Source: a virus. Taken from it: a stretch of DNA of 64,000 bases. The translations under genes and the position numbers were made by a program. The notes beneath the pieces were generated by a model, which saw nothing but the letters and a program-made list of their open reading frames with translations, did not search any database and was not told the origin of the DNA. The stretch spans positions 28,422-92,421 of the IMG/VR virus record IMGVR_UViG_3300030108_003057, one strand, 5' to 3'. Positions 16,810 to 55,500 of the stretch are shown one piece after another (position 1 is the stretch's first letter; each line of letters starts with the position of its first letter).

Positions 16810-19194
16810 ATGTCTTGGCGTAATATTTTAAAGGATGAAGCAGTAGAAAATTTTGGTTCATCCAGTAGTAATATTATAGAAGATGTAGATAAAATTCTAT
16901 ATGATATTCTTGATGAACAAGTAAAAGAAATTAAAGATAAGTCTAAAGATTTTGAAAAACAATGGGATTCTGCTACTGCAAAGATACCCGGAGTCAAAGG
17001 AAATGTCGGTGGAAAATTTATATCAGAAATATATGAACAGACACTAATGAATTCGATGAATTATTTTATAAATAAAAGAAGGTCAGACGTTTATATGGGT
17101 ATATATAACGCTATAAAAAGTAATACTGCTATTCCACTAGTTAATGATTTCGATAATGAAACATTTAAAGCAAATGTAAGTGTTTCACCGTTAGATTATT
17201 TTAGTGCTTTAATGCTTAAACCAGAATCTGACGATGATAGTGGGTTAGGTAACCTATTCGATAGGATGAAAGTAGATAGTTCGTCTTGGGATAGTACAAG
17301 AAGTATATTTAGGAGTAGATTAATAAAAATTATAGATAAAAATACAGCGAATCATAAAATGAAAATATTTGAACCCAGTGAAAAAGGACCGTCAGAAAGC
17401 ACACTTTTACCAAACGCCTCTATGTTTATGAATTTAGAAGGTAGAGATAGAAATATACTCTATGCTAAAGTTCCAATTGACGGCGCCCCTCCCGCTACTT
17501 TTAAAATATCCTTACGAGAATTCTTAGTAATGCTAATAAATGTAAATAAAAACGAGATTGTTGAAACATATCGACTCTTTCTAAATTTAGTTAGTAGGGT
17601 TAATGAAAAACTTAAGTCTTTTTGGGGAGTAGATAAAGATTATATGCTAAGTGGTGGAAGAGATATAGAATATGAAGAAGCGAACACTTTCTTTGGATTT
17701 TCTCCAGAAGAATTAGGTGAAGGTATTGAAAGAACATTGGTAAGCGGAGTAGTAAGGGCGCAAAAAAATATTAATGATACTGTTAAAAATCTAAAGCAGA
17801 TAGAAGTTGTTGGTGAATCCACCGCAAAATATGATAAAAGATTATACACATATGGGGAACTTGGGGCAACTCCACCAGAAGGTAAAACTGCAAAAGATAT
17901 TGTTGAAACATTTACTGATAAGACTAAAAAATTAACACAGCGAGAAATAAAACAACGAGATGACGTTGATTTAACAGGTTTAAATATAATGCAGGGCGAC
18001 AAGAAAATAGGAATATTACTTTATAAAATAGTAATTCCAGTTAAAAGAGGGGAAGATATATCAAAGTTCTTATCGAGTAAGGAAAGGCAAATGATAGATT
18101 ATCCTAGTCTATATGCGAGTGCATTCATGGAGCGAGTGTCGGGTCTACGTGGCGGTAGAGCAGGTCGAGTAATGCCTGTTATATTTATTGGTACCGTGGC
18201 AGAAGACAGCAACAAACGTAATAGAACTATAGAGTCTTATGTTGAAGCACCTTCTATTAAAACAATTGGTAGAATTTTTACAGAACCAGAATCCTATAAT
18301 TATCCTACTCCATCAGAATTAGTCGCTACGGGTTTTGCATCAGATACTGTAACAGATTTCTTACCTAGCGTAACGTCCAGTGAATTTGCTAGATTAGTAT
18401 ATCATGAACCTTCTGAAAGAAACTTTATAGAATATAAATTTACTATACCGTTGATAGAGTTTGGAAATGCAAAGATTAATTATAGAACCCTAGAAGATAC
18501 GATGGAAGATGGTCTTATATCATTTAAAAATTATTTAATCCAAAATAATTTACTAAAACAAGAAAATGCCTTCAGAATAACTGAGGATATAACGGTGGAT
18601 TTTATGAGATACTATAGAGGAACAATTAACAATTTATCAGGTGTCGGTACCATTTATAATCATGTAAACCACTATCTAGGGTGGCAAAATCGTAGTTTTG
18701 AAGGAACAGAAACTTTATTTCAGATGGGTGATAAGTATAATATAGACATTGTAAAATTACTTACCTTATCAGGACTCAAAGTAAAGAAATTTGAATGTAA
18801 AATTTTCTTAGATGTGTTTGGTGCTATGAGGTCAAGGGGAGAAAAAGGACAACGTACTAGGAGTTCACAATATGGTGATTATACAGTATCTTTAGGTCAA
18901 CCACATCTTTGTTTTTATAGCGACTTAAAAAGTGGTAAGATTTATCCAGAAACAGGCGGCGGAGATGTATGTATAGTTTTATCGTCTAATGTACCTGTTG
19001 CTGATGCAGTAGGCCCCATAAGTTTACAATTATTACAGTTAGTTAATATATTAGAAGATTTTTCAAAAGAATTTGATATTAGAAAATTTACACAATTAAA
19101 ACCGATGGGTATACAAAGTGACTTGTCTGGAAAATTTGCTAGTATAATAGGTAATTCTGAAGTGAAACCAGTTGGTGACGTTAAGGTGGTTTAA
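16810..19194 (+). CDS. Large hypothetical protein with N-terminal MSWRNILK tag
   Basis: ORF 16792..19194; CTTTATAT TATA at about 16772; tag start at 16810. Confidence 0.8.
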   Translation: MSWRNILKDEAVENFGSSSSNIIEDVDKILYDILDEQVKEIKDKSKDFEKQWDSATAKIPGVKGNVGGKFISEIYEQTLMNSMNYFINKRRSDVYMGIYNAIKSNTAIPLVNDFDNETFKANVSVSPLDYFSALMLKPESDDDSGLGNLFDRMKVDSSSWDSTRSIFRSRLIKIIDKNTANHKMKIFEPSEKGPSESTLLPNASMFMNLEGRDRNILYAKVPIDGAPPATFKISLREFLVMLINVNKNEIVETYRLFLNLVSRVNEKLKSFWGVDKDYMLSGGRDIEYEEANTFFGFSPEELGEGIERTLVSGVVRAQKNINDTVKNLKQIEVVGESTAKYDKRLYTYGELGATPPEGKTAKDIVETFTDKTKKLTQREIKQRDDVDLTGLNIMQGDKKIGILLYKIVIPVKRGEDISKFLSSKERQMIDYPSLYASAFMERVSGLRGGRAGRVMPVIFIGTVAEDSNKRNRTIESYVEAPSIKTIGRIFTEPESYNYPTPSELVATGFASDTVTDFLPSVTSSEFARLVYHEPSERNFIEYKFTIPLIEFGNAKINYRTLEDTMEDGLISFKNYLIQNNLLKQENAFRITEDITVDFMRYYRGTINNLSGVGTIYNHVNHYLGWQNRSFEGTETLFQMGDKYNIDIVKLLTLSGLKVKKFECKIFLDVFGAMRSRGEKGQRTRSSQYGDYTVSLGQPHLCFYSDLKSGKIYPETGGGDVCIVLSSNVPVADAVGPISLQLLQLVNILEDFSKEFDIRKFTQLKPMGIQSDLSGKFASIIGNSEVKPVGDVKVV

Positions 19195-19195
19195 T

Positions 19196-19747
19196 ATGTG
19201 GTGGGATATAATTAAGTCGGATGACCTGCATAAAGATTTTAAATTTAGACAAGGTAAACCTTGGAGAGTAAGATTTTTAATGTGGGCGGGTAATAAAATT
19301 AATCATCTTCTTGGTGGTCCACCTAAACAATTTCTTATGTTAGGTGGTTATCAACCAAAAACCGGAGAGGCAGATGCATATTTAGATGATATAAAAGAGT
19401 ATCGTAAAAGATATGGTGGGACATATACAGAAATAATAACAGACATATTAACTCACGAATATGTTCATAAAGTATTAACCGAAGACCCCGAAATAAATAA
19501 ACTATTAAAACCATATAGAAAACATAGATTTGACCCTTTGGCTGTTTCTGCTCAAGAATGGGCAGCAAACCAAATGTCTACTACTAGTGAATTACAAGCA
19601 TTATATAATTTATTACAACACCCAGCAGTTCCACAATCTACAAAAATCAGGGCTGAAGAAAAAATAGACAGGGTATATACAATTAAAGAAAAAGTAGAAG
19701 ATGAGGTAGAGACATTCCTACAAGAAAACCCAGTGGAGGAACAATAA
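19196..19747 (+). CDS. Tagged (MWWDIIK) HExxH zincin-like protein
   Basis: LTHEYVH plus downstream AQEWAAN third-ligand-like Glu. Confidence 0.6.
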   Translation: MWWDIIKSDDLHKDFKFRQGKPWRVRFLMWAGNKINHLLGGPPKQFLMLGGYQPKTGEADAYLDDIKEYRKRYGGTYTEIITDILTHEYVHKVLTEDPEINKLLKPYRKHRFDPLAVSAQEWAANQMSTTSELQALYNLLQHPAVPQSTKIRAEEKIDRVYTIKEKVEDEVETFLQENPVEEQ

Positions 19748-20586
19748 TGTGGTGGGATATAATTAAATCAAAATGGGTAGATAATCTATCCGAGAAAAAG
19801 AAAAAGATATTAGAACATAAACCATCTTTTGAAGTAGATGTTCCTAAAATGTCTTACCCTGATGATGAAAAGGAAATAAAGGAAGTCATTAAAATTATGA
19901 AAGATAAACCAGTCCCTAAAAAAATAATGGATAAAAATGATAAGGATGCCGATACATTGATGTATGGTATTGTAGGTGCGAAAGCCGCAGACTATAAAGA
20001 TTTTAAAATGGATTTAGACTCTTATGTTATGCAAGAGAAAATGAAATATGAAAGACCTAGACCAAATGAAAGTTCTAAGTTAAGTGAAACTAAAACCAAA
20101 ACAGATGATACTCCGGCTTTTCCGTCGGGTCATGCTACTTTAGTATATGCTTTAGAAAAAATATTGGGTGCAAAACATCCTAATAAATCTGATGAATTAA
20201 GTAAGATGGCGGAAATGTTAGCATTGGCTAGAGTTCAAATGGGTTCTCATTATCCTTCTGATATTGAGGCAGGTAAAAAATTAGGTTATCTTATTGCTAA
20301 AGAATATTTAAAAATTAATAAGGCTAAAATAAAAGCACATATGCCCACACTAAGACAGGCTCTAAAAGAAATAGACCTACCTGAAAGATTTACCTTAGCG
20401 GAAATTAAACAACCGTTAAGAGAAAAATATATTGAGTTAAGACAAGATGAGGTAGACGGCTATCAATTAAGAAGAGAATTAGCAAAATTAGATAGAAGTC
20501 ATGTTTCTATTGTTCCTAGAATTCTAAATAGTATGCGTATTTATTCTAATGAAACTCGTGGCGGTCTTGCATTATTTAGAAGGTGA
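19747..20586 (+). CDS. Tagged (MWWDIIK) PAP2/haloperoxidase-superfamily phosphatase with a C-terminal helical (possible wHTH) domain
   Basis: K.KYERPRP, PAFPSGHA, ARVQMGSHYPSDI = the three PAP2 motifs. Confidence 0.8.
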   Translation: MWWDIIKSKWVDNLSEKKKKILEHKPSFEVDVPKMSYPDDEKEIKEVIKIMKDKPVPKKIMDKNDKDADTLMYGIVGAKAADYKDFKMDLDSYVMQEKMKYERPRPNESSKLSETKTKTDDTPAFPSGHATLVYALEKILGAKHPNKSDELSKMAEMLALARVQMGSHYPSDIEAGKKLGYLIAKEYLKINKAKIKAHMPTLRQALKEIDLPERFTLAEIKQPLREKYIELRQDEVDGYQLRRELAKLDRSHVSIVPRILNSMRIYSNETRGGLALFRR

Positions 20587-23541: not shown

Positions 23542-24090
23542 ATGGGATGGTTTGATATATTAAAGAAATTAACTCGTGATGAAATGGGTCAAGTTAGACC
23601 ATATATTAAGGATGAGTTAGAAGAAGGTAAAAAGAGAATAAGAAGTGTCCGTAATCGGTATCGCTATAAATTAGGTAGGGAGCCAACAGAAGAGGAATTA
23701 CGAGAAGAATTATCTAAACCTCCTAAAGTTAAAAGACCGAGAGGCGGGCAGCGTAAAATGCGACCTAAGATTAGGGACCACCCCGCATATAGAAGATTAA
23801 TAGCACGGTTTAGACGAGAGGGCCAAAACAGAGTACCCACCGAAGAAGAATTACGACAAGAAATATCTAATCCAACAAAACTTTTAGCAGGAAGACAAAA
23901 AAGAGTGCCGCCACAACGAGCAGAAAGATTTGAATTATTTGATAATATTAAATTATATTTAGAATCTCAAAATATAACCCCTACTGTTATGAACATTTTA
24001 GAAGAACTTAGTGATTCCGATAAAACTAATCGTGAAAAAGATATAAATGATATTGGTGAATATTTAAGAACACAGAGGATGAGTGATTAA
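23542..24090 (+). CDS. Tagged (MGWFDILK) basic protein with two PTEEELRxE repeats
   Basis: REPTEEELREELSKP and RVPTEEELRQEISNP. Confidence 0.7.
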   Translation: MGWFDILKKLTRDEMGQVRPYIKDELEEGKKRIRSVRNRYRYKLGREPTEEELREELSKPPKVKRPRGGQRKMRPKIRDHPAYRRLIARFRREGQNRVPTEEELRQEISNPTKLLAGRQKRVPPQRAERFELFDNIKLYLESQNITPTVMNILEELSDSDKTNREKDINDIGEYLRTQRMSD

Positions 24091-24091
24091 T

Positions 24092-24388
24092 ATGCCAATA
24101 AGAAAAGTTAAAGGTGGATATAAGTGGGGCAAATCTGGTAAAGTTTATCCTACTCGCAAACAAGCAGAAAAACAAGCAGCCGCTGCCTATGCTTCTGGTT
24201 ATAAAAAATCAGAAGAACGTGGTGAATGGTTTAATACTCTTAAAGCAAAAAAGAAGAAAACAAAAAAGGATGCTTGTTATCATAAAGTAAGAAGTAGATA
24301 TGATGTTTGGCCTTCTGCTTATGCTTCTGGTGCTTTAGTTCAATGTCGAAAAGTCGGCGCAAAAAACTGGGGGAAGAATAAGAAATGA
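24092..24388 (+). CDS. Basic two-module protein with an internal tag (EWFNTLK)
   Basis: MPIRKVKGGYKWG... module plus DACYHKVRSRYDVWPSAYASGALVQCRK module. Confidence 0.7.
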   Translation: MPIRKVKGGYKWGKSGKVYPTRKQAEKQAAAAYASGYKKSEERGEWFNTLKAKKKKTKKDACYHKVRSRYDVWPSAYASGALVQCRKVGAKNWGKNKK

Positions 24389-24582
24389 GTTGGCGCGATG
24401 AAATTAAAAGGTACGAAGGTGATAATGAACTAGTTACTATTTTAGGACAGTTTGCTTTTAATATAGAAGAAGTAATCAAAGAACTAAAGAAACCTAAACC
24501 AAATGTTAGAGAACTAATTAATAAATTAGAGTACGATTTAGATATTACTGTAACAGAACTAAGGTCTGAAATGGAGAAATAA
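24385..24582 (+). CDS. Tagged (MSWRDEIK) small protein
   Basis: ATGA overlap; tag. Confidence 0.65.
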   Translation: MSWRDEIKRYEGDNELVTILGQFAFNIEEVIKELKKPKPNVRELINKLEYDLDITVTELRSEMEK

Positions 24583-24584: not shown

Positions 24585-24839
24585 ATGACTTGGGAAGATA
24601 TTTTAATTAAAGATTGGGTATCTTGTGCTTCATGTACTGATGATAAACCCGGAACAGAACCTTGTGGGAGAAAAGATGCTTCTAAAGGAACTAAACGTAG
24701 ATGCCGACCAACTTGTTCTGCTTGTAAAGATTATAAACGTAGAGCAGGTAAAAGAGGTAAATCAAAAAGAAGAAAAGCCGGAACGTTTAAATTAGAACAA
24801 GACCAAGGGTTACACGGTTGGTTTAAGAGGAGAGGATAA
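24585..24839 (+). CDS. Tagged (MTWEDILIK) Cys-rich basic protein
   Basis: CASC, PCGR, CRPTCSAC. Confidence 0.65.
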   Translation: MTWEDILIKDWVSCASCTDDKPGTEPCGRKDASKGTKRRCRPTCSACKDYKRRAGKRGKSKRRKAGTFKLEQDQGLHGWFKRRG

Positions 24840-24840: not shown

Positions 24841-25041
24841 ATGAGTTGGTTCGACGTTATTAAATCTGATAAAGTAATTGAAGATAAAATTATTGCTGAG
24901 TTCAAAAAAGAAGGAGGTGCTTTAGGTATGAAAAATCTCAAAGCAATTGCACCACCTAAAGAACTTAATAGAGTATTAGATGCTATGAAGCGCAGAAAAT
25001 TAATTTATGTACATGAGCATGGCGACTTAATTATGAGGTGA
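24841..25041 (+). CDS. Tagged (MSWFDVIK) small possible wHTH protein
   Basis: Tag; helix-helix-wing pattern. Confidence 0.65.
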   Translation: MSWFDVIKSDKVIEDKIIAEFKKEGGALGMKNLKAIAPPKELNRVLDAMKRRKLIYVHEHGDLIMR

Positions 25042-25045: not shown

Positions 25046-25333
25046 ATGAGTTGGTTTACTGTTCTTAAAAAGGACAAAAAAGATATGCGTGTAGGTCGCG
25101 TATATCCCAGTGATAGAGCAGGTAAAAAAATTATGATGTTAACTCATGAAGGTAAAAAGATTCACGCCGGAGCAAAAGGTTATGGTAACTATAAACGTTC
25201 TGGTAAAAATAGAGGCGGTGGAACTCATCGTAGTAAAAAACGACGTAAGAGTTTTAGAGCAAGACATAAATGCCATGAGTGTAAAGGACGCATTACTACA
25301 CCACGTTGTTTAGCCTGTAAAAAGTTGTGGTGA
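25046..25333 (+). CDS. Tagged (MSWFTVLK) very basic protein with RRKSFRARHKC motif
   Basis: Tag; K/R-rich; C-terminal Cys cluster. Confidence 0.7.
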   Translation: MSWFTVLKKDKKDMRVGRVYPSDRAGKKIMMLTHEGKKIHAGAKGYGNYKRSGKNRGGGTHRSKKRRKSFRARHKCHECKGRITTPRCLACKKLW

Positions 25334-25337: not shown

Positions 25338-25676
25338 TTGTGGAAAAATATTCTTAAGGCAGAACCGGCAAAAGGTACGGGTAAAAAACCAAAAGGTTCT
25401 AGCAGAAGATTATACACTGATGAAAACCCAAAAGATACAGTACCTGTAAAATTTAGAACTGCTGAAGATGTTAGAAATACTTTTGCCAGTGCAGCGTTTA
25501 AATCTAAACCACATAAAAGACAATCACAAATAATTAATTTAGTTGAACAACGCGCAAGAGTTGCGGCGAGAAGGGCTAAAGACCCAGAAGCAAAAAAACG
25601 TTTACGTTCAGCACACAAAGTCGCATTGGCTAGAAAAGAATCAAGTAAAAGAAAAACTGAGAGGATGAATAAATGA
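25338..25676 (+). CDS. Tagged (MWKNILK) basic protein with GTGKKPKGSSRRLYTDENP motif
   Basis: TTG start after GGTGA; tag. Confidence 0.7.
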   Translation: MWKNILKAEPAKGTGKKPKGSSRRLYTDENPKDTVPVKFRTAEDVRNTFASAAFKSKPHKRQSQIINLVEQRARVAARRAKDPEAKKRLRSAHKVALARKESSKRKTERMNK

Positions 25677-26146
25677 CTTGGCAAAATATTATTAAACAAT
25701 CTTTTATTGTTAAGATAAATTTTCCAGAAGCAGACTTTTGGCTACAGACAAGAGGTACAGAAGATAATGTCGGCAAACCTTTAAAACAATTTTCTCCAGT
25801 TCAAGGTAAATATAATTTTGGAATTAAAGTTCCAGAAGGAATGAATAAAGCCTATGTGTATAAACAATTAGCGGACTTATATAGAAACGGTTATTGGAAA
25901 ATTAATTCTTATGGTACTTTAAATTTACAACACATACGTAAGAATGATATTATTAAAGTATTAGATAATATGGAAGATAAAAAAGATTATAAAGATGAAA
26001 CATCTGATAAATTTCAAGACCTATATAACAATTGGTTAAATCAATCAAAAAATATAGGTATGTTATTAGAAGGTCACAGTTCAGAATTAGTTCGTGAAGG
26101 TAGAGAGATAAGAAGATTTATTAAAAAATTGGAGGACATGAGATGA
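25673..26146 (+). CDS. Tagged (MTWQNIIK) hypothetical protein
   Basis: Tag; ADFWLQTRG...GTLNLQHI core. Confidence 0.7.
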   Translation: MTWQNIIKQSFIVKINFPEADFWLQTRGTEDNVGKPLKQFSPVQGKYNFGIKVPEGMNKAYVYKQLADLYRNGYWKINSYGTLNLQHIRKNDIIKVLDNMEDKKDYKDETSDKFQDLYNNWLNQSKNIGMLLEGHSSELVREGREIRRFIKKLEDMR

Positions 26147-26952
26147 GTTGGTTTTACGGTATTATTAGAAAGGCTGAAGAAGTTGTATTGGCAACAAGAT
26201 TAGCACAATTACCAGATGAATTACAACAAATGATAAGAACTAGAGAAGGTGAAGGTTATCATCTTGGGGCTTATGTTCCAGCAGAAGATACAACATACAT
26301 ATATTTACCTGATTTTAAACGCGCGATTGATGAGAAAAGAGAGGGAGTTATGCGAGGAAGACTAGGTGAAGATGCGAGTTTCGCTCAGATGTCTGATGAA
26401 AGATTTGAGAGAATATTTATGAATAAATTTCTTGATACATTAGAGCACGAAAGTCTACACAGTGCTATGGATAAAGAAATTAAAGAATGGGTTAAAGGAG
26501 AGGTAGACAGTTTTAACGAACAAATAACGATGAGAGTTTTACGCAGATTCGTAGAAAGAAGTGATAACCCAGATAGTTTATTTAATAGAACAAATTTACG
26601 AAATATAGCAATACCTAGACTAACAGAAATATTAACGGTGTCTGCAACAAACTTAGTACACGAAATATTAGTTAGGATGCTATTACAAAGAGATTCTGCG
26701 CTAAGTTCAAATCAATTAAAAGAATATGTTATGATGTATTCTAAAGTTATAGTAAATGAAATAAGAGATATGGTTACGAACTTACCGGCAAATGCTTCAA
26801 TAGAAGATGATGTAAACCAATTTTATCAAATGGTATTATCACTAATGAGTGGATTTTGGTCGGAATATATGAAAGTATATTATGATTTTAGTTTAGACTA
26901 TACTTCAGGGGTTATAGTAGAGACTATAAACGAAGCGTTAGATGAACTATAA
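26143..26952 (+). CDS. Tagged (MSWFYGIIRK) HExxH zincin-like protein
   Basis: LGAYVP..DTTYIYL strand plus LEHESLH. Confidence 0.6.
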   Translation: MSWFYGIIRKAEEVVLATRLAQLPDELQQMIRTREGEGYHLGAYVPAEDTTYIYLPDFKRAIDEKREGVMRGRLGEDASFAQMSDERFERIFMNKFLDTLEHESLHSAMDKEIKEWVKGEVDSFNEQITMRVLRRFVERSDNPDSLFNRTNLRNIAIPRLTEILTVSATNLVHEILVRMLLQRDSALSSNQLKEYVMMYSKVIVNEIRDMVTNLPANASIEDDVNQFYQMVLSLMSGFWSEYMKVYYDFSLDYTSGVIVETINEALDEL

Positions 26953-27397: not shown

Positions 27398-27588
27398 TAA
27401 GAATGCCCCGCACTGAATGGTTTAATCGTTGGTTAGATGAAAACTTCCCAGATGAAGAAGTAGAAGATGTTTTTGAAAAGACTTTAGAATATATTGATAA
27501 TAGTGAAAATGATACTAGAACACTACAAAAAATTAAGGCTTATATATTACAGGCTTTTAGTATGTCTAAGGGAGATGAAGAGGAATGA
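27394..27588 (+). CDS. Hypothetical acidic protein
   Basis: 64-aa ORF coupled to neighbours. Confidence 0.55.
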   Translation: MIRMPRTEWFNRWLDENFPDEEVEDVFEKTLEYIDNSENDTRTLQKIKAYILQAFSMSKGDEEE

Positions 27589-27842
27589 GTTGGGAACTCT
27601 ACCTTAAATCCATTGACCAAAAAGAAATTGATAGTTGGACAGAAGCATTAAAGGCTTTTATTAAACAAGGTAGAGAACTAGGAATTCCATTAGATATAAT
27701 GTCTGAATTAGAAAATGCAAATAAAGCAGTTGGCGCAACAGTTACTACTTCGCCGGGATTTACTCCCTCAATTCATAATATAGTTTATGGTTCATGCCCC
27801 AAGTGTAAAGATAAAAAATCTCCTTGTGGGTGTGATAAATAA
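27585..27842 (+). CDS. Tagged (MSWELYLK) protein with C-terminal CPKC..CGC
   Basis: Tag; internal ANKAV site; Cys cluster. Confidence 0.65.
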   Translation: MSWELYLKSIDQKEIDSWTEALKAFIKQGRELGIPLDIMSELENANKAVGATVTTSPGFTPSIHNIVYGSCPKCKDKKSPCGCDK

Positions 27843-29245
27843 TGAGTGAATATAAAGCATTAGAAAATATTTCTGATGATATTCAGGAAATAATTAAAAA
27901 CGCAACAACAAGATGTATTAGGGCAATTGAAGCAAGAGTGCCTAACACTGGTGTAGCGGGTGAAGGTAATAGACCTAAAAAAATTATAGAAATAATGAGA
28001 AGACACGGTGAAGGCCAATTTGCTAGAAGTACAGTAAATCTGTTCGATGGAATGGGTAGAGCCTTAGATTTAATAGAGATATTACAAAATAAAGATGAAA
28101 TACTAGTAGAAGATATACAAAATCTAAGAGAAGCACAAGAAATATTAAAAACAATATTAGCAGATAAAACTCATAAAAAGAAAGCAGGAGGCACAAACCC
28201 TAGAAATATTAGATTTAGAGTAGTTACTAAATTTAAATTAGAAGATGGTAAACCAGTTGTTGTCGATAGAGGTGATGTTTTTGGTCACTATAAAACACCA
28301 ACTGTAATAAGATATTTAGATGCTAGAAAGGAGTATGCTAGACAACAAGGTGAAGAATATACTGGGCCGAACTATAAAGAAAGTTCAGAAGATGTTAGGT
28401 TTTGGGCTAGTGATAAACCAAATACTAGCAAACCACCATTGTTTGTTGCTCTCCAAACATTTGAAGCAGAATTAAGAAAAATCCTTAAAGAAATAAAAAC
28501 GCCACCAGAACCAGCAGACCCAATAGTAATAAATATAGATAAAGGTGTTAAGTTAGAACCGTTTTCTAAATTAGCATCATTAAAGGAAGGATTTCGTGAG
28601 ATAGTAAGTAATCCAGAAATATATCCCAAAATACCAACACGTAGAGATGGTAAAAAGGTATTAGGTTCAAATAAACCAATAATTGTAAGTTATGATAAAA
28701 GTCAAAGAGCAGGTCAAAAAACCTTTACATCTGAAGTAACTGAATATATTTTTAGAATAACAAGTAACGCTGATAGAAAAATATTAGATGAGGCAGTTCC
28801 GGGTTGGGGAGAAGAAGGTAAAGATTTGGCTCAAACAAGTTCTTTAGAAGAATTTAGACTTAAAGTTAATAGCACAAGACGCACAAAGACATTAGTTAGA
28901 TTAACATTGGGTGGAGAACTATCAACCATTAGAATACCGGATAGAACACCGGGAGTAGTATTGAAAGCACAAGAATTTTTAGAAGAAATAAATAAAAGTA
29001 GATATAGCGATAAAAATAGACAATCAAAAAAATTAGAAATAATAGATAAAATATTGACTAACTCTTCTGAGCCTTTAACTGTTAGAGAAATTTTAGAGCG
29101 TTGGAGAGGTTTAACAAATTATGCTGGTAGACCATATAAAAATATTCCAACTACTAATGAATTAAGTATGATACTAAAACGACACGGTTATAAGATAGTT
29201 AACACAGTAAGAAAAATATCATATTGGGGACCGAGGAAGGAATAA
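27842..29245 (+). CDS. Hypothetical protein with a C-terminal winged-helix-like domain
   Basis: EPLTVREILERW...IPTTNELSMILKRHGY. Confidence 0.75.
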   Translation: MSEYKALENISDDIQEIIKNATTRCIRAIEARVPNTGVAGEGNRPKKIIEIMRRHGEGQFARSTVNLFDGMGRALDLIEILQNKDEILVEDIQNLREAQEILKTILADKTHKKKAGGTNPRNIRFRVVTKFKLEDGKPVVVDRGDVFGHYKTPTVIRYLDARKEYARQQGEEYTGPNYKESSEDVRFWASDKPNTSKPPLFVALQTFEAELRKILKEIKTPPEPADPIVINIDKGVKLEPFSKLASLKEGFREIVSNPEIYPKIPTRRDGKKVLGSNKPIIVSYDKSQRAGQKTFTSEVTEYIFRITSNADRKILDEAVPGWGEEGKDLAQTSSLEEFRLKVNSTRRTKTLVRLTLGGELSTIRIPDRTPGVVLKAQEFLEEINKSRYSDKNRQSKKLEIIDKILTNSSEPLTVREILERWRGLTNYAGRPYKNIPTTNELSMILKRHGYKIVNTVRKISYWGPRKE

Positions 29246-29247: not shown

Positions 29248-29529
29248 ATGTCTTGGGAAAATATTGTTAAAAGAAAAAAGATGAAACCTTTGTATAAAAA
29301 ATTAATTGATGATGTAGTAGAAGAATTATATAGCCCTGCATCTGCTCAAGAAATATATTCGCTGATGCGTGATAAATTTGAAAAAGAAATACAATTCTCC
29401 GGTCGTAAAGTTTTAACTGGAAGATATTTCCCAGATATAGGTGCTGTTAGACAGTATCTTAAAGTTAATCACAAATCTACGGGTATGTTTAAACAAAGAA
29501 AATTATACGGTGGTAATCAGAATGACTAG
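29248..29529 (+). CDS. Tagged (MSWENIVK) winged-helix-like protein
   Basis: SPASAQEIYSLM...FPDIGAVRQYLK, similar in pattern to the C-terminal domain of the upstream gene. Confidence 0.65.
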   Translation: MSWENIVKRKKMKPLYKKLIDDVVEELYSPASAQEIYSLMRDKFEKEIQFSGRKVLTGRYFPDIGAVRQYLKVNHKSTGMFKQRKLYGGNQND

Positions 29530-30184
29530 AGTAACCCGTAAAACCTGCCCAGTATGTAATCACGAAGAACGTGATATAATAGAACAAGGAGTTCTTGACG
29601 GAAGTATTGACCCATCAGTATTAGATAAAGATAATGGTTGGTGGAATGGAACTACCCGTAAACATATGCAAAACCACACAGACAATTATGTTTCACATTC
29701 AAACGACAATTGTAAGTTATGTACACATCAGTCAAGGGCTGATATTGAAGCAGGTCTTTCAGATGGCCGCACCAAAGTTAGCGAAATAGCAGAACAATTA
29801 GAAATGTCTGAGGATGCCGTACAATTACATTTAAGAAAGCATCTAAAACCTATGATACAAAAGAGCGCGGCTATGGAATTAGCACGTATTGATTTTAATG
29901 AAATGGACGTGCTTTCTAACAATATTGCTATACTACAAAATAAAGTAAATGGTTTAGCGGATAACGAAAACCTTAACTTTAAGGAAATAGATTCTTTAAC
30001 TAGATTAGCAAAGGAAATAAGGGAATCCCTTAAATATATGTTAGAATTTAAAGGACAATTAGTACACAAGAGAGAAGAAACTATTGTGGTCCAGCAGGTT
30101 GAGGTTATTCAAAGAGTATTAATTGAAAAATACCCCGAAGTATGGACAGACATAAGAGATGCAGTTGCGGAGAAATTACAATGA
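29522..30184 (+). CDS. Putative terminase small subunit (two CxxCxH + HTH repeats, coiled-coil C-terminus)
   Basis: CPVCNH...HMQNH and CKLCTH...VSEIAEQLEMSEDAVQLHLRKH; start MTRVTRK at 29522. Confidence 0.55.
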   Translation: MTRVTRKTCPVCNHEERDIIEQGVLDGSIDPSVLDKDNGWWNGTTRKHMQNHTDNYVSHSNDNCKLCTHQSRADIEAGLSDGRTKVSEIAEQLEMSEDAVQLHLRKHLKPMIQKSAAMELARIDFNEMDVLSNNIAILQNKVNGLADNENLNFKEIDSLTRLAKEIRESLKYMLEFKGQLVHKREETIVVQQVEVIQRVLIEKYPEVWTDIRDAVAEKLQ

Positions 30185-30378
30185 GTTGGGAAAATATATT
30201 CAAAAAAGAACCCGTTAGGATTGATTTTACGAGCAGTAAGAAACTAATGGCTTGGGTAAGTGATGAATACGGTACTGGGAGAGGCCCATTTACAATAGAA
30301 TCTATTTATGCTCAGTTAAAGAAAGATGGGACTTTTGAAGATAGAATGGAATTTATTGATGATAAAAGAATTAGGTGA
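30181..30378 (+). CDS. Tagged (MSWENIFK) small protein
   Basis: ATG 30181 overlaps the upstream stop. Confidence 0.6.
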   Translation: MSWENIFKKEPVRIDFTSSKKLMAWVSDEYGTGRGPFTIESIYAQLKKDGTFEDRMEFIDDKRIR

Positions 30379-31124: not shown

Positions 31125-31246
31125 GTTGGTTTAATATTATTAAGAAGTTAAGTGGTAAACAATATAAGATTGATGCTAATAAAGATGGAAAAATTACGGA
31201 AGAAGATTTTAAACAGTTAAGAGAGAAAAAAGCAAAAGAGGAATAA
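31121..31246 (+). CDS. Tagged (MSWFNIIK) 41-aa EF-hand micro-protein
   Basis: MSWFNIIKKLSGKQYKIDANKDGKITEEDFKQLREKKAKEE*; DxNxDGxIxxxD loop; not in ORF track. Confidence 0.7.
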   Translation: MSWFNIIKKLSGKQYKIDANKDGKITEEDFKQLREKKAKEE

Positions 31247-42779: not shown

Positions 42780-43017
42780 AGAATTAAATCAACAAGAAGA
42801 ATTACAATTACTTTTGAAAAGTCTAGTAGACCGTGTTAAAAATTTAGAGGCTATGGTTTACAGCACTGATAATATACTTATGAAATCCGGTTTAGTTAGA
42901 GCCGAAACAAGTAGACCAACTATTCAAACTAATAATGGAGTTCCAGATGCAGATGTTATTGCTAAGATGGACTGGTCAGAATTAGATGATATGGTAAAAA
43001 AATTTAATGGTGAATAA
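42772..43017 (+). CDS. Small coiled-coil head-module protein ending MDWSELDDMVKKF
   Basis: Start MSEELNQQ after GGTGA. Confidence 0.65.
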   Translation: MSEELNQQEELQLLLKSLVDRVKNLEAMVYSTDNILMKSGLVRAETSRPTIQTNNGVPDADVIAKMDWSELDDMVKKFNGE

Positions 43018-43637: not shown

Positions 43638-44009
43638 GTGGACTGGAAACTTATTCTAAAAAGAAGATTAAGTAATTCTGAGTTCATGAAAGTTATAACT
43701 ATACTAGGTAAAGAATTACAAGAAGCGGGCTTAATGTTAGAACACGCAGGGGTACAAACTTCTGAATTTAGCACAGGGCGAGATGCAATAACATTTCCTA
43801 GAAACTTTAAAGTTAGTGTTGAAGGAATTAGTGCTACCTTTGCTTTAGATTTTGAATTACCAAATATGTCTGTTAATATTAGACATATTAAAGGAGATAA
43901 AGATTTAACTGATTTAGTTCAAGAATACCTATCGACTGAGCAAGATTTAATTAATAGAATGATAAGAGCCATTTCACCAGATGCATCAGGAGATATTGCT
44001 TATGGGTAA
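43638..44009 (+). CDS. Tagged (MDWKLILK) hypothetical protein
   Basis: GTG start after GGTGG RBS within ORF 43596..44009. Confidence 0.65.
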   Translation: MDWKLILKRRLSNSEFMKVITILGKELQEAGLMLEHAGVQTSEFSTGRDAITFPRNFKVSVEGISATFALDFELPNMSVNIRHIKGDKDLTDLVQEYLSTEQDLINRMIRAISPDASGDIAYG

Positions 44010-46127: not shown

Positions 46128-47399
46128 ATGGCTCTTAGCACAACTATGTTAGGTTCACATTATGGGGCGGGTAGCGAATTAGTTATTCTAAAGTCTCTTA
46201 AAAATGAACCATTAGTTATTGCCGGATATGCGTCTGTTGATGTGGTTGATAAACAAAATGATTTAATCACATTAGATGCATTAAAGGATGCATCGAGTAA
46301 ATTTATGAAAGGTGACTACAAAAATGTTATGATAACCCATTCAAATGTTCAAGTGGGTGAAGTTATTGATTCTTGGACAGATTCAAAGGGTAATGTATTA
46401 AAAACAAATGTTGATGATACCGGACTATTTGTAGTTATTAAGTTAAGAGATGATATAGAAAAGGCAAGAGAAGTAGGGCGTGAAATTCGTAGGGGGAATT
46501 TGCGCTCTTTTAGTATCGGGGGACAAGCACTTCACAAGTCCAACCGATATGACCCCGACATAGGAACGTATAAAGAAATAGATAAGTTGGAGTTACATGA
46601 AGTGACGATTTGTGAAGAAGGAATAAACCCCGAAGCGAAATTCGATATAGTAAAAGAATTAAAAAAGGAAGATGATAAAATGTCTGAAGAAATAGCAAAA
46701 GCATTAGAAGAATTTAATGAAGTTGTATCTGCTTTAAGAGAGCAGGTAGAAATTAGGAAAGATGATTCTCTAGAAGACATGAAAGAAGATGATATGGAAT
46801 CTATGGAAGTAGAGGACATGGCAATGGAAAACATGGAAGAAGATGAAGAGAATCTTATGTATAATAAGGCCGAAGACGATGATGAAGAAAACATGGACGA
46901 TGAGGAAATGAAGGCCGAATCTGTCGTTTATGGACATAACGAAACAGGACAGTCTGTTATTGAAGGCAAACTAACTGGTCGTTATACTGGAGACTTTAAG
47001 GACTTTATCGCAAGAAAGTCTGATTCAGTTTCTAGTCTAGATTTGACGGAAGAAACTCTAGCAAAGGCTTACGAGCAATTTAAGTTAGAGAAGGAAGAAG
47101 CAAGAACATATGATGTAATTAAGGAACAATTTGAAGCAATTTATGCTAACGAATTGGCAGCAGAACAGGCTGAAATTGAAAAGGCTAGTTACGATGCAGC
47201 ATCAGAAGTTGCTTCTTTGAAACAAGAGTTCGCAGAATTGCGTAAGTCTCTTGAAACAAATAACGAAGTTATTACTAAGCAGGTTGATGCTGCTGTAGCA
47301 GGACCACAACTTAGTGAAGAAATGGTTATTAAGATGCAGAATGTAGGAGAATTATCATGGGAAGAAGTTAACCAACTTTTCCATGATTTACAGGGGTGA
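46128..47399 (+). CDS. Prohead (HK97-type) protease fused to an acidic scaffold
   Basis: IAGYAS..VDKQND, ITHSNVQVG (His), RSFSIGG (Ser), LHEVTIC..GINPEA; acidic coiled-coil C-terminal half. Confidence 0.9.
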   Translation: MALSTTMLGSHYGAGSELVILKSLKNEPLVIAGYASVDVVDKQNDLITLDALKDASSKFMKGDYKNVMITHSNVQVGEVIDSWTDSKGNVLKTNVDDTGLFVVIKLRDDIEKAREVGREIRRGNLRSFSIGGQALHKSNRYDPDIGTYKEIDKLELHEVTICEEGINPEAKFDIVKELKKEDDKMSEEIAKALEEFNEVVSALREQVEIRKDDSLEDMKEDDMESMEVEDMAMENMEEDEENLMYNKAEDDDEENMDDEEMKAESVVYGHNETGQSVIEGKLTGRYTGDFKDFIARKSDSVSSLDLTEETLAKAYEQFKLEKEEARTYDVIKEQFEAIYANELAAEQAEIEKASYDAASEVASLKQEFAELRKSLETNNEVITKQVDAAVAGPQLSEEMVIKMQNVGELSWEEVNQLFHDLQG

Positions 47400-47404: not shown

Positions 47405-48700
47405 ATGAGTGTAAATACAATTAGAACAATACAAGATTTAGAAAGAGCCACCTATGGCGGAGCAGGTTACGGTCTATTAAAGGCTGCTGGTGTAGAATCA
47501 GGAATTCATTCAGTTCACGATACTACTTTGGCATCTGCGGCTGCTGGTAGTGGTTTATATAACTTAATTTATGGACAAAAAGTTTGGTCAATGCTTAACC
47601 GCGAAATTAACGCATTAAGTGTTTTACCTAAGAAACCTTGGAGTTCCTCCGGTTGGCGTATTCTAAAAGAACGCGCTCTCGGTGGTGCTGGTGATGTTTT
47701 TAGTACAACAGGAGGAACCGGTCACGGTTCTTTAACAGAAGCAAATATTGGTGGTGTAGCAGAAAACGCATCATTTACTACAAGCGCAACAGATGGATTA
47801 AGTCCTCTAAAGCCAGTATATGATGTAATGTATGCAAGTCCAAAAACTGTCGCACATCAGTTTGAGATTTCTGAACTTGCTGCTGCTATGGCAAAGATTG
47901 ATGACGGTATAGGAGATATTATGGCTGCTTACCGTGAAGAAGTCGGTGTTTCTCACGCAGAAGTAATGAATCATATGGCTTTAATGCCATTAGAATCTCA
48001 TCTTAGTGGTGGTTCATCAATTAGCGGAATTGGAAATAACTTAACATCTTTGTATAAGATTGTTTCATCATTTAGTGAAATTGATGCTATGGACGGTGGA
48101 GTAATTCTAACCGGTACACAAACAAGTAACGCACAATTAATTAATTTGTATGGTCATGCAAGAGCATCTTCTGGTGCTGATTGGCTAAACGCATTTGTAG
48201 ATTTTGGGTCAAGTTATGCTGCCAGAAGGCCATTAACTTTGAATATCCTAAATACTACTCTACGTGAGTTACAGATTAGAGGCGGTTCTCCGAAAGTTAT
48301 TCTAACAGGGTATGATACAATTCAAGCCCTCGGTGAATTACTACAATCCCAAGAAAGATTCATGGGACGAACTGAAATTATGCCAAGTCATAACGGAGTT
48401 CGCGGAGTTAAAGGTAGAGAAGTTGGTTTTAAGGTTGCTACTTATCACGATATTCCTATTATTCCTTGTAAGGATATGGGAAGTACTGGTTCTGGAAGCG
48501 GTCTATCGGATATTTTTATCCTAGATACTGACCATCTTTTCCTATGTACTCTAAAACCTACTGAATACTTTGAAGGTGGAATTGATTCTGGCGACCCATT
48601 CGGTGTCGGAAAACTAGGAAACCGTGGAATGTATAGAACGATTGCTGAATTAGTTTGTACCTATTTCAAGGGACAAGGTAAAATCACAAACCTTTCGTGA
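47405..48700 (+). CDS. Major capsid protein (HK97 fold)
   Basis: Follows the protease-scaffold; 431 aa; PKTVAHQFEIS, GGSPKVILTG, YHDIPII, IFILDTDHL. Confidence 0.88.
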   Translation: MSVNTIRTIQDLERATYGGAGYGLLKAAGVESGIHSVHDTTLASAAAGSGLYNLIYGQKVWSMLNREINALSVLPKKPWSSSGWRILKERALGGAGDVFSTTGGTGHGSLTEANIGGVAENASFTTSATDGLSPLKPVYDVMYASPKTVAHQFEISELAAAMAKIDDGIGDIMAAYREEVGVSHAEVMNHMALMPLESHLSGGSSISGIGNNLTSLYKIVSSFSEIDAMDGGVILTGTQTSNAQLINLYGHARASSGADWLNAFVDFGSSYAARRPLTLNILNTTLRELQIRGGSPKVILTGYDTIQALGELLQSQERFMGRTEIMPSHNGVRGVKGREVGFKVATYHDIPIIPCKDMGSTGSGSGLSDIFILDTDHLFLCTLKPTEYFEGGIDSGDPFGVGKLGNRGMYRTIAELVCTYFKGQGKITNLS

Positions 48701-54276: not shown

Positions 54277-54978
54277 ATGTGGTATAATATAATTAAACAG
54301 GAGGAAAATTACTATTTACCACTTTCGGTATATGGTGATGAAATTAACGTTGCTATTAGTAATTATTCTATGGGTCTTTCCGACACATTAGATTTATTGG
54401 AAATAATTAGAAGTCCTGATGGTAAACGTAAATCAAAAAAAGCATTTGAAAAATTAGTTAGAACAATATTCTTAAAGATTTATTCAGAAATATTTAATGA
54501 TATGGATATGAATACAGTAATTGAAAAAGAAAAATTTTATGATATAGTTGAATCACGACTCGATAATATTTATATAAATAAAGAACAGGTAGACCCAAGA
54601 ACTGGTAAAATATATAATAAACGTATAGACCTTAGAAAATTTATTAGCACTGGCGGAATGAGGCAAAAATATGAAATTTATTATAAATATTCTAGAAGAA
54701 AACTACCCCTTCCTATAAGACAAATATTAGTACAAGAAGGTTATATTGAATCTGTTTTTGCTAGAGATTTAGCAGAAAATCAACAACCTTTTGGACCAAA
54801 GGAATCTCAAGACACCATGCAGCGTCGCGCCGCTGGTCTATACATACCATTTGAAAGGAGAGCAGATAATAGTTTTATTAAAAGACGAGATATTCCACCT
54901 ATTCGATACTTAAGTGAATTAGCACCTTTTATGCAAAAATCACCAGTACCTAGGGATAGAAGTAGAACTAGAATGTAA
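54277..54978 (+). CDS. Tagged (MWYNIIK) hypothetical protein
   Basis: ORF 54268..54978; tag start at 54277. Confidence 0.7.
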   Translation: MWYNIIKQEENYYLPLSVYGDEINVAISNYSMGLSDTLDLLEIIRSPDGKRKSKKAFEKLVRTIFLKIYSEIFNDMDMNTVIEKEKFYDIVESRLDNIYINKEQVDPRTGKIYNKRIDLRKFISTGGMRQKYEIYYKYSRRKLPLPIRQILVQEGYIESVFARDLAENQQPFGPKESQDTMQRRAAGLYIPFERRADNSFIKRRDIPPIRYLSELAPFMQKSPVPRDRSRTRM

Positions 54979-54985
54979 ATAGGTT

Positions 54986-55186
54986 GTGAATACTATGAAT
55001 GATAAATTAGATACATTAATAAAGAATATACCGGATATAAAGGAAATAATTATACAACAAAATCAAGATATAGAGGATATGAGTAAAGAACTACTAGGTG
55101 TTAAAATGTCTGATACTATTGTAAATAAAGTAATAGAACAAGAATTAACTAAGGAAGTTATTAAAAGAATAATGGAGGCTTTTTAA
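54986..55186 (+). CDS. Hypothetical protein
   Basis: 66-aa ORF. Confidence 0.55.
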   Translation: MNTMNDKLDTLIKNIPDIKEIIIQQNQDIEDMSKELLGVKMSDTIVNKVIEQELTKEVIKRIMEAF

Positions 55187-55500
55187 TGAGTTGGGATAAA
55201 ATATTAAAAAAGAAAAAGATAGAAGTTCCTAACTTTAAAAAGGCAATTAAGATAGCAGGAGATGCGTTTTCTGTCGATACAGTTCTTAATTTTACTGAGC
55301 CAGATGAAGATGTAAGAAAATTTATTAATTTAGCAAGACAAGCATATGCTAGTTTAACTAATAATGGACAACACGCAAATAAAACATTTGAGCCTCGTTC
55401 ATTTAGAGGTAGACTTAGATTTGTTATCAGTATATTATCAAATCATGGTTGGGAAGTAAAAGCACATCATAAAAATAGAATTATGGTTAAGGTGAAATAA
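55186..55500 (+). CDS. Tagged (MSWDKILK) basic protein
   Basis: GGAGG RBS; tag. Confidence 0.7.
   Translation: MSWDKILKKKKIEVPNFKKAIKIAGDAFSVDTVLNFTEPDEDVRKFINLARQAYASLTNNGQHANKTFEPRSFRGRLRFVISILSNHGWEVKAHHKNRIMVKVK

Follow-up and report, generated by a model that had tools for sequence, protein, structure and literature searches.

The question raised by this locus is why a short N-terminal peptide, M-x-W-x-x-[ILV]-[ILV]-K, stands at the head of many different proteins encoded in the window, the whole 64,000-nucleotide stretch of viral DNA analysed here. The virus is abundant in the ocean and infects archaea. The 22 tagged starts listed in the initial annotation all translate as noted there, 18 in a strict form, W-x-x-Φ-Φ(-Φ)-[KR] no more than three codons from the start codon, and four in a looser one (IISK at 20591, DEIK at 24385, YGIIRK at 26143 and LYLK at 27585). 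A ribosome-binding site of the GGAGG/GGTGA type lies 6-12 nt upstream of each of these ORFs, three of which have non-ATG starts. Together they code for 4,160 aa and constitute about one fifth of the viral genes. They are given below with two sites internal to untagged ORFs; the tags were read from translation of the start unless another basis is named.

16810..19194, +: tagged ORF, 794 aa, MSWRNILK; no Pfam or PHROG match
19196..19747, +: tagged ORF, 183 aa, MWWDIIK; HExxH at residue 87; its first 20 nt the same as those of 19747
19747..20586, +: tagged ORF, 279 aa, MWWDIIK; soluble PAP2 / class A acid phosphatase-like (Pfam PF01569, 6.5e-10); no transmembrane segment
20591..21820, +: tagged ORF, 409 aa, MNWKNIISK (loose variant)
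23542..24090, +: tagged ORF, 182 aa, MGWFDILK; pI 10
24227..24244, +: internal in-frame tag WFNTLK joining two modules of untagged ORF 24083-24388 (module comparison with relatives; the two are separate or otherwise fused in G002 and G003)
24385..24582, +: tagged ORF, 65 aa, MSWRDEIK (loose variant)
24585..24839, +: tagged ORF, 84 aa, MTWEDILIK; Cys-rich basic module with CxxC pairs, in relatives fused behind PAP2 with the tag still in frame
24841..25041, +: tagged ORF, 66 aa, MSWFDVIK
25046..25333, +: tagged ORF, 95 aa, MSWFTVLK; basic, two CxxC; in G003 a C-terminal module after the internal tag KSWENIIK
25338..25676, +: tagged ORF, 112 aa, TTG start, (M)WKNILK; pI 11.2
25673..26146, +: tagged ORF, 157 aa, MTWQNIIK
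26143..26952, +: tagged ORF, 269 aa, MSWFYGIIRK (loose variant); HExxH at residue 102
27585..27842, +: tagged ORF, 85 aa, MSWELYLK (loose variant)
28955..28972, +: conserved VVLKAQ site within untagged 467-aa ORF 27842-29245 (comparison with relatives, which have ILKQQ or VLKQQ here, in two of them followed by a tag, NWQNILK or ISWEGILR)
29248..29529, +: tagged ORF, 93 aa, MSWENIVK
30181..30378, +: tagged ORF, 65 aa, MSWENIFK
30384..30587, +: tagged ORF, 67 aa, MSWYEVIK
31121..31246, +: tagged ORF, 41 aa, MSWFNIIK followed by an EF-hand-like loop
31463..33265, +: tagged ORF, 600 aa, TTG start, (M)IDWKDLLIR; start uncertain, as the Atlas record begins at residue 8
40790..40954, +: tagged ORF, 54 aa, MNWQDILK; directly 3' of the portal gene
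43638..44009, +: tagged ORF, 123 aa, GTG start, (M)DWKLILK
54277..54978, +: tagged ORF, 233 aa, MWYNIIK; accessory insertion in the structural module (start translation and comparison with relatives)
55186..55500, +: tagged ORF, 104 aa, MSWDKILK; accessory insertion in the structural module (same basis)

That the bodies behind the tag are unrelated, as had been claimed, is confirmed by BLAST, which gave no paralogue pair at E≤1e-5 among 21 tagged window proteins; the earlier body annotations (PAP2, HExxH in 19196 and 26143, CxxC pairs in 24585 and 25046) also hold. Alignment of 47 tag-bearing N-termini limits the conserved columns to M1, W3 and K8, and a variety of residues (K, R, A, S, N, V) follow the tag Lys. 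A six-frame scan with the core pattern returned 34 + strand matches as opposed to 4 - strand matches, and no ORF starts at any of the latter. The tagged proteins display no transmembrane segments, 13 of 21 have a pI above 9, and both small membrane proteins of the tagged block are untagged.

The tag characterizes an entire clade of magrovirus-type tailed viruses from the sea, and none of the papers searched mentions it. A DNA-pattern scan of nine further related contigs (68-185 kb) recovered 6-20 strict copies per contig on the structural strand, with 0-1 matches on the opposite strand and 0-1 for a reversed-pattern control. In five genomes 92 of the 93 N-terminal copies lie on the structural strand, and 80 capsid-gene loci (826 kb) hold 89 tags on the capsid strand and none on the other. 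The tag density is 0.54 per kb in viral loci as compared to 0.04 per kb in cellular genomes, where 120 scattered single matches occur, 91 of them away from any ORF start. The statement of the initial annotation that the tag is confined to a virion arm stands as regards the strand, which is that of the terminase, portal, protease and capsid genes, but the name given to the 16.8-33 kb block is owed solely to the strand and tight packing that it has in common with the head genes. The tagged genes are accessory, for 4 of 21 are conserved in at least three of four relatives, whereas 24 of the 34 genes that lack a tag are (p=2.7e-4), and the products of tagged genes are a fast-changing set. In a sister clade the tag reads M-T-A-F-D-x-A-W-x-Φ-Φ-K, and the head proteins there carry ..DLLK followed by A (capsid protein) and ..DF[IL]LK followed by A or S (protease).

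Module junctions across genomes always keep the tag, which either opens a gene or continues the reading frame with another residue in place of Met (KSWEGIIFK, KSWENIIK, ITWKDILK, GEWFNTLK), and the junction tag is conserved in at least six diverged PAP2 fusions. It is proposed that modules may occur either as separate genes or as in-frame fusions because the tag also serves as an internal junction. Nearly all of the approximately 79 viral PAP2 homologues begin with the tag, bar a few truncated or fused forms, whereas a Sec-type signal peptide stands at the N-terminus of 41 cellular class A acid phosphatases; the tag therefore occupies the position of a sorting signal. The head genes and their sites are as follows.

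36381..37790, +: large terminase (Pfam Terminase_6C, 4.6e-9)
39162..40793, +: portal (Pfam Phage_portal, 1.4e-7, below cutoff; conserved in G001-G004)
42709..43017, +: small conserved head-module protein with the end VIAK-MDWSELDDM (motif 42967-42993; conserved in G001-G004)
46128..47399, +: S78 prohead protease fused to an acidic helical scaffold (Pfam Peptidase_S78, 2.7e-12)
46128-46193, 47325-47333 and 47352-47378, +: protease-scaffold sites, namely N-terminal ..SELVILK22, VIK402 and C-terminal LSWEEVNQL (termini of about 60 relatives)
47405..48700, +: major capsid protein with a putative 26-residue propeptide ending GLLK26 (47405-47482; about 60 N-termini compared)

The tag had been described as absent from the core structural proteins, which is literally true, but parts of it recur in three of them. 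Its I-L-K matches conserved Φ-Φ-K sites at the capsid N-terminus (K26), at the protease N-terminus (K22) and in the scaffold tail, and at each of these three a small residue (A, S, G, Q, M) follows Lys. K26 is invariant in 37 sequences, the length just upstream of it being variable, and K22, which immediately precedes the GYAS protease core, is invariant along with W411 in 36. The scaffold [IL][ILA]K is placed 10-30 residues ahead of a C-terminal Trp motif, [ML]-[SDTEN]-W-[EDSA]-[ED]-[IVLA], which contains W411, and residues 308-422 are predicted as helices in the structure model (pLDDT 60-87). The small head protein family ends in ..IAK-M-[DE]-W-x-E-Φ, and among six-frame ORF C-termini of five genomes the Trp motif is limited to these two families. 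The nearest cultured relatives of the capsid protein are those of haloviruses, at 25% identity. An N-terminal capsid-protein propeptide is removed by all studied prohead proteases (PMC7411985), and in HK97, the type S78 system, the capsid protein is cut after Lys (K103/S104) (PMC10275583).

Sequence comparison thus supports a link of the tag to head assembly, as I-L-K is shared with the capsid protein, protease and scaffold, the scaffold has a Trp end, PAP2 exchanges its signal peptide for the tag, and junctions retain the tag in frame. The best explanation, to which we assign an even chance, is a two-part signal for capsid targeting and protease release, analogous to the capsid-targeting sequence (CTS) of T4, in an archaeal virus with an HK97-type (S78) protease. 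The Trp part, W-x-x-Φ, forming one face of a short amphipathic helix, would dock the protein inside the assembling procapsid, at the same kind of site as would receive the tag-like C-terminal helix of the protease-scaffold and the small conserved head protein. The terminal Φ-Φ-K would be the cleavage site of the prohead protease, as at the capsid and protease N-termini and in the scaffold, and a cut after Lys would release each protein body from its anchor. The freed proteins, which are soluble, often small and basic, in part enzymes, and replaced rapidly in evolution, would remain beside the DNA in the head and would probably pass into the next host cell.

Certain observations count against individual parts of this explanation. 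Cleavage is weakened by the low information of Φ-Φ-K in a proteome rich in Ile, Leu and Lys, and by a conserved W-R-V-L-K within the folded capsid protein, so that cutting is impossible at some Φ-Φ-K sites. It is also weakened by the varied residues after the tag Lys, which differ from the small ones at the three head-protein sites. As regards targeting, the apparent likeness of tag to scaffold tail is short, and contig G013 combines tags of the A-F-D-x-A-W type with a scaffold end of the M-S-W-D-E-V type; tag and scaffold tail therefore do not strictly co-vary. As regards packaging, the load would be heavy, with 22 genes coding for 4,160 aa and two of the proteins as long as 794 and 600 aa; and the main tagged block is the start of the rightward arm, adjoining the control region, a place where early genes could also lie.

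It is possible, though unlikely, that the tag is instead a short linear motif docking to a hub other than the capsid, such as a viral ubiquitin-like protein, a chaperonin, a membrane, or a replication or assembly compartment. Atg8-type LIR motifs have W-x-x-[ILV] as their core too, and several kinds of docking motif would be compatible with W-x-x-Φ flanked by acidic residues and accompanied by a conserved Lys. This Lys might act as an acceptor; about 10 of the 22 tags contain Φ-K-x-[DE], and a ubiquitin-like kit lies on the opposite arm, its E1-like and JAB-like genes being conserved in G001-G004. Magroviruses also encode chaperonins (PMC5434244), and the tag appears to function at internal positions as well as at the N-terminus. 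However, hub docking leaves unexplained both the recurrence of I-L-K at conserved sites of the capsid protein, protease and scaffold and the confinement of the tag to the head-gene strand. Nor does it account for the restriction of the Trp motif, outside the tag, to two head-assembly proteins, and W-E-D-I-L-K, being net-acidic, would make a poor membrane anchor.

A signal for processing alone, that is, a pro-peptide or polyprotein junction cut in the cytoplasm by a viral or host protease to activate or separate modules, with no packaging, would agree with the in-frame internal tags at module junctions and with the Φ-Φ-K common to the tag and the likely protease sites. It is nevertheless quite improbable, because prohead proteases of this family act within the procapsid (PMC7411985), an 8-residue pro-peptide on separate small proteins would have no evident use unless it were an address, and the invariant Trp, five residues upstream of the putative cut, is matched in the scaffold tail.

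Selection on the tag acts at the peptide level, as had been claimed, since its Ile, Val, Lys and Thr codons approximate genome-wide usage (p>0.09) and the spacing from ATG to the TGG of Trp varies from 0 to 2 codons; six codons are used for its Leu. Conservation at the nucleic-acid level, with a translation-initiation or coupling element or a recombination cassette boundary being retained and the peptide incidental, would account for ATGA or TTGA overlapping the upstream stop at 14 of 22 window tag starts, for AGT as the codon-2 Ser in 23 of 30 cases (p=6e-7), for the identical first 20 nt of 19196 and 19747, and for the tags being points of module shuffling. Besides the background codon usage and unfixed spacing, it is rendered very improbable by in-frame internal copies, which retain the peptide in diverged relatives without a start codon, and by the sister clade, whose peptide differs but follows the same W...ΦΦK scheme; recombination at tags is more readily understood as a consequence.

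A new export or secretion signal taking proteins out of the cytoplasm is scarcely credible, for although the tagged proteins are soluble and the tag stands in for a Sec signal peptide in a normally secreted enzyme family, it has no hydrophobic core, occurs in internal copies and has no link to any secretion gene, and nucleic-acid binding is suggested for many of the tagged proteins by their small size, basic character and Cys-rich or helix-turn-helix-like make-up.

The proposed targeting and release signal can be compared with the T4 CTS, which is carried by IPI, IPII, IPIII and Alt and is removed by the prohead protease gp21 (PMC9026906, PMC7411985). The CTS is bipartite, residues 4 and 7 serving targeting and residues 8 and 10 processing, and the T4 protease has its own cleavage site close to its N-terminus (PMC9026906). 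Like the CTS, of 10-19 aa, the tag, of 8 aa, is a short N-terminal peptide on unrelated, often small basic proteins; the CTS consists, and the tag would consist, of a targeting part followed by a cleavage motif of the protease that recurs in the capsid protein, in the scaffold and near the protease N-terminus, and the cargo of T4 and the candidate cargo here are both variable sets. They lack sequence likeness, the T4 signal ending in [LI]-x-E and the magrovirus tag in Φ-Φ-K; the protease here is of the S78 (HK97) type and not of the gp21 family, the host is an archaeon, and about 15-20 genes per genome are tagged as compared to 4 in T4. The tag, whose role is read from sequence, also occurs in frame inside fused multi-module proteins, unlike the CTS.

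HK97 gp4/gp5 shares the protease family (Pfam Peptidase_S78) and cleavage of the capsid protein after Lys (PMC10275583). The HK97 capsid protein has a 103-residue scaffold domain, whereas here a propeptide of about 26 residues is accompanied by a scaffold fused to the protease. The HK97 protease is reportedly guided into the capsid by its C-terminal part (Duda, Oh and Hendrix, 2013), a precedent for the Trp motif that ends the protease-scaffold; HK97 is not known to have a tagged cargo family. In P1, DarB is an anti-defence protein that is delivered together with the DNA, and its N-terminal signal of fewer than 30 residues is sufficient for a large enzyme, and also for a reporter, to be loaded into the head (PMC9024508). 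The tag is a candidate for the same role, but the P1 Dar proteins have no consensus N-terminus, unlike the single consensus on every candidate cargo here (PMC9024508). In the giant phages SPN3US and phiKZ the prohead protease recognizes a single motif in numerous head proteins, and the ejected proteins make up a large mass (PMC7411985, PMC5694885), resembling the many proteins, one proposed protease motif and large proposed cargo of the present virus. Their propeptides are, however, long (about 110-130 aa) and mutually dissimilar, and the cleavage motif is different.

Encapsulin cargo-loading peptides and microcompartment encapsulation peptides are short terminal peptides that dock unrelated enzymes to the inner face of a shell, which in encapsulins has the HK97 fold. 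They differ from the present tailed virus in lacking a portal, a terminase and a protease, and their peptides are usually C-terminal and stay in place. At the herpesvirus M-site the protease, of another family and with another motif, cuts the scaffold shortly before its C-terminal capsid-binding tail and frees the scaffold body, and the scaffold [IL][ILA]K preceding the Trp motif here has the same layout.

The DNA is a portion of the genome of a tailed virus, in which the following genes were recognised:

36381-37790, + strand, large terminase (Pfam)
39162-40793, + strand, portal (Pfam)
42709-43017, + strand, small head-module protein with a Trp motif at its C-terminus (conserved in five genomes)
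46128-47399, + strand, S78 (HK97-type) prohead protease fused to an acidic helical scaffold, referred to as the protease-scaffold (Pfam Peptidase_S78, 2.7e-12)
47405-48700, + strand, capsid protein (Pfam)

To the left of about 14 kb the genes lie on the − strand. The part of the window that starts at 16.2 kb has its genes on the + strand, closely spaced at a median distance of 2 nt. An ATP-dependent DNA ligase (43981-46095; Pfam 1e-28) is encoded within the head module, after the portal and before the protease, a position kept in four related genomes, and a tape-measure-like protein (59145-60734; PHROG 1e-6) displays about five strongly hydrophobic segments. Among cultured viruses, the haloarchaeal siphoviruses HCTV-1 and HVTV-1 have the closest capsid proteins (∼25% identity), and the same capsid relation has been described for the magroviruses, a group associated with Marine Group II archaea (PMC5434244). 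Magroviruses were recognised here as marine contigs of ∼90-100 kb with a capsid protein related to that of haloarchaeal siphoviruses and with separate replication and structural modules. The present virus is marine, its DNA being contained in marine metagenomes, and exhibits both the capsid kinship and the separate modules; of the 598 relatives of its capsid protein in IMG/VR, many are encoded on contigs of 87-96 kb, and contigs of 87-111 kb are included.

The initial annotation had listed 22 ORFs opening with the peptide M-x-W-x-x-[ILV]-[ILV]-K, of about eight residues (the tag), and all 22 translate as claimed, each with a Shine-Dalgarno-like site upstream. The strict form W-x-x-Φ-Φ(-Φ)-[KR] (Φ, hydrophobic) within three codons of the start is present in 18, the other four being looser variants. 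A six-frame scan of the window for the core pattern returned 34 matches on the + strand and four on the − strand, none of the latter at an ORF start. The bodies behind the tag are indeed unrelated, as no BLAST pair was obtained among 21 tagged window proteins, and in 47 aligned tagged N-termini conservation is restricted to M1, W3 and K8. Nearly all tagged proteins are without annotation in Pfam and PHROGs; the 794-aa protein (16810..19194) gave no usable protein-atlas match, while the protein-atlas leads of the 600-aa protein (31463..33265) are all sub-threshold and no relatives of it were found in viral contigs.

Related viruses carry the tag above control levels. Nine whole related contigs, whose capsid proteins are all 57-80% identical to that of the window, gave 6-20 strict DNA-pattern matches on one strand, against 0-1 on the opposite strand and 0-1 with the reversed pattern. 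Five genomes contain 93 N-terminal copies, 92 of them on the structural strand, with the consensus M-[STN]-W-[EKF]-[DN]-I-L-K, and at 80 capsid loci 89 copies are found on the capsid strand and none on the opposite one. When the whole viral collection was scanned with the DNA pattern, at least 120 stretches matched; among the matches listed, 102 have proteins in common with the five reference genomes, and the remaining ones are mostly tag-dense or apparently single chance matches. Applied to 185,579 cellular species, the pattern gave isolated single matches across unrelated taxa, 91 of the 120 listed being away from any ORF start. The tag is a clade marker. One related IMG/VR contig (G005, behind L132; 184,733 bp) has two capsid genes ∼91 kb apart and two tag sets, and is probably an assembled dimer of a ∼92 kb genome. 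No common N-terminal tag was found in HVTV-1, the nearest cultured relative. In that genome (KC117377.1, 92608-100901; 40289-48582 in L343), about 15 consecutive small ORFs (36-87 aa) have a common C-terminal [FY]-W-[DENS]-x-[RY]-[LWMF], for example ..EQFWDARCPA, ..NEFWDRRMP and ..SEFWDGRLDA, and may represent a paralogue family or a terminal tag.

The Φ-Φ-K ending of the tag is also present at conserved positions of three head proteins. In the capsid protein, the first ∼26-33 residues form a conserved segment ending ..[LIM][LM]K, the next residue being A, S, G or Q. All 37 sequences compared have K26, and length varies immediately ahead of the motif. The protease opens with 15-22 residues ending ..[FL]-x-[IV]-[LI]-K, with K22 invariant, directly ahead of the GYAS core, and in the scaffold part [IL][ILA]K precedes the C-terminal motif by 10-30 residues. 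The capsid protein of HK97, which typifies the S78 family, is cleaved after Lys103 (PMC10275583), and removal of an N-terminal capsid propeptide is common to all studied prohead proteases (PMC7411985). The AlphaFold2 model of the capsid protein (37 sequences) has a mean pLDDT of 47.7, too poor to place K26 on the HK97 fold, and that of the protease domain a pLDDT of 30-45, too low to judge the I-L-K segment in the active site. A 460-aa protein encoded in the terminase-portal interval (37777-39159) has a conserved N-terminus, MVLIK, MVLIFK or MELIISK, and with it a further Φ-Φ-K close to a protein start.

The Trp part of the tag also has a counterpart in the head. The C-terminus of the protease-scaffold reads [ML]-[SDTEN]-W-[EDSA]-[ED]-[IVLA]-x-x-[LMF] in all ∼60 relatives, W411 being invariant, and the small head-module protein ends ..IAK-M-[DE]-W-x-E-Φ; a six-frame scan of ORF C-termini in five genomes confined the motif to these two families. 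The last 115 residues of the scaffold (308-422) were modelled by AlphaFold2 as helical, with a terminal helix spanning the Trp motif at pLDDT 60-87, and W, Φ and Φ at i, i+3 and i+4 would form one helix face. A variant tag, M-T-A-F-D-x-A-W-x-Φ-Φ-K, occurs in about 35 contigs with capsid proteins 43-48% identical to that of the window. Since the capsid protein (..DLLK, then ADSP) and the protease (..DF[IL]LK, then [AS]) of this sister clade keep Φ-Φ-K, the Φ-Φ-K logic is valid in both clades. Four of five sister scaffold tails read ..[DE]-G-W-[RL]-A-[AV]-E-x-L. A test for strict co-variation between the type of tag and the scaffold tail failed in contig G013, where variant tags go with the tail M-S-W-D-E-V-H; tag and tail resemble each other, therefore, without co-varying strictly.

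The tag may be interpreted as a two-part address and release signal, a functional analogue of the capsid targeting sequence (CTS) of phage T4 internal proteins. Confidence in this reading is evenly balanced, since each of its steps (docking, cutting, packaging, injection) is one that we infer. A Trp docking turn and a Φ-Φ-Lys cut site would constitute a simple two-part cargo code, the HK97-type prohead protease would cut the tag after Lys, and a soluble module would become cargo by gaining eight codons. The reading has its weak points: Φ-Φ-K is low in information, the residue behind the tag Lys is heterogeneous, the potential load is large (4,160 aa coding), and the main tagged block adjoins the control region. 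When the capsid protein (alignment A1) and the 54-aa tagged protein (40790..40954; alignment A2) were co-folded, the score was 0.13, the mark being 0.32, a value that speaks on neither side of the binding question. Docking of the tag to another hub, such as the viral ubiquitin-like protein, a chaperonin or the membrane, is the strongest of the alternatives but improbable. No membrane segment was found in the tagged proteins (Kyte-Doolittle window of 19), and the two small membrane proteins within the tagged block are both without the tag.

Modules are rearranged between genomes, with the tag retained at each junction. The gene at 24585 (MTWEDILIKDW..) is separate in the window; in at least six diverged proteins of relatives it forms an in-frame module behind PAP2, with ..KS-WEGIIFK-EW.. 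or ..KS-WQDILVK-DW.. at the junction. In the related genome G003, the body of 25046 is located after an internal ..KKS-WENIIK-RKK, and in the untagged window ORF 24083-24388 an internal GE-WFNTLK-AKKKK joins two modules that are separate elsewhere. The junction sequences fit an internal tag that is recognised in the protein and is probably cut there. That the tag is a processing signal without packaging is quite unlikely. Under the address-and-release reading, heads would be protein-delivery vehicles using the two-part code, with modules made singly or as polyproteins split by the head protease, a proposal that falls slightly short of even probability. Conservation in at least three of four relatives was recorded for 4 of 21 tagged genes versus 24 of 34 untagged genes of the same strand (p=2.7e-4); the tagged genes are the accessory fraction.

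Selection on the peptide had been deduced initially from varied codons. This stands for Ile, Val, Lys and Thr, which are at genome-wide usage (p>0.09), and six Leu codons are used inside the tag; it does not hold for Ser at codon 2, which is AGT in 23 of 30 cases, the sole strong nucleotide bias. As many as 14 of the 22 window tags open with ATGA or TTGA across the upstream stop codon. The AGT bias is compatible with ATGA start/stop overlaps, which may also explain the S/T/N preference at position 2, and together bias and overlaps suggest translational coupling along the tagged block (16810-33265). Apart from Ser at codon 2, codon usage indicates that selection is at the peptide level. A nucleic-acid-level signal, to which the AGT bias might point, is very unlikely, as internal tags persist without a start codon; the tag being so kept at in-frame junctions, it is not an initiation signal. 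The adjacent tagged genes 19196 and 19747 have unrelated bodies and identical first 20 nt (ATGTGGTGGGATATAATTAA), and tag DNA may act as microhomology for cassette exchange.

Two groups can be distinguished among homologues of the tagged PAP2 protein (19747..20586), about 79 of viral type and 41 distant cellular class A acid phosphatases. Nearly all of the former open with the tag or with a mis-called start beside it, the few exceptions being N-terminally truncated or fused forms, whereas the latter begin with a Sec-type signal peptide and carry the tag in none of 41. The tag thus takes the place of a sorting signal. Despite that position, an export signal is the least probable reading: a Sec/Tat signal peptide has a hydrophobic core of ∼10-20 residues behind a basic N-region, and such a core is present in the cellular PAP2 homologues and in no tagged protein. 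The pI exceeds 9 in 13 of 21 tagged proteins. Inside the tagged block, the untagged ORF 21878-23536 encodes a very acidic protein (552 aa, pI 4.1) with 16 Cys.

No mention of a common N-terminal motif was found in the magrovirus literature examined, and a literature search found nothing that connects archaeal viruses with a capsid targeting sequence. In the surface ocean magroviruses rank among the most abundant viruses, and the majority of their genes are without known function. If the address-and-release reading is true, 15-25% of magrovirus genes would be capsid cargo marked by the tag, and about a fifth would be packaged effectors. Hundreds of orphan gene families would thereby receive their first functional assignment, and the cargo proteins would be active as the virus enters its host, probably serving host takeover or counter-defence. 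The tag system would be the first of the capsid-targeting kind from an archaeal virus, with the largest known tagged cargo set, and would provide a minimal tag to load foreign proteins into HK97-fold shells.

Encapsulin systems have a shell gene of the HK97 fold and lack a portal, a terminase and a tail, and their cargo peptide docks to the shell; the presence of terminase, portal, protease and tape-measure genes places the tag outside the class of encapsulin cargo-loading peptides. In T4, CTS residues 4 and 7 serve targeting and residues 8 and 10 processing; a corresponding site lies close to the N-terminus of the protease itself, and the CTS is all that the unrelated internal proteins have in common (PMC9026906). 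One short N-terminal peptide is likewise common to unrelated proteins here. However, the protease is of the S78 (HK97) type and not of the gp21 family, which argues against homology to the T4 system, and the CTS ends with [LI]-x-E, unlike the M-[STN]-W-x-[DN]-I-L-K of this tag. As judged from sequence, the tag system is an analogue of the T4 CTS system and not a member of it. The packaging signal of P1 DarB (PMC9024508) and, in giant phages, the head proteins that bear propeptides (PMC7411985) are also among the closest by function, and by ancestry the tag lies outside all three systems. If the reading is true, archaeal viruses would have evolved the T4 strategy of an address plus a protease cut on their own, with a protease of the HK97 type.
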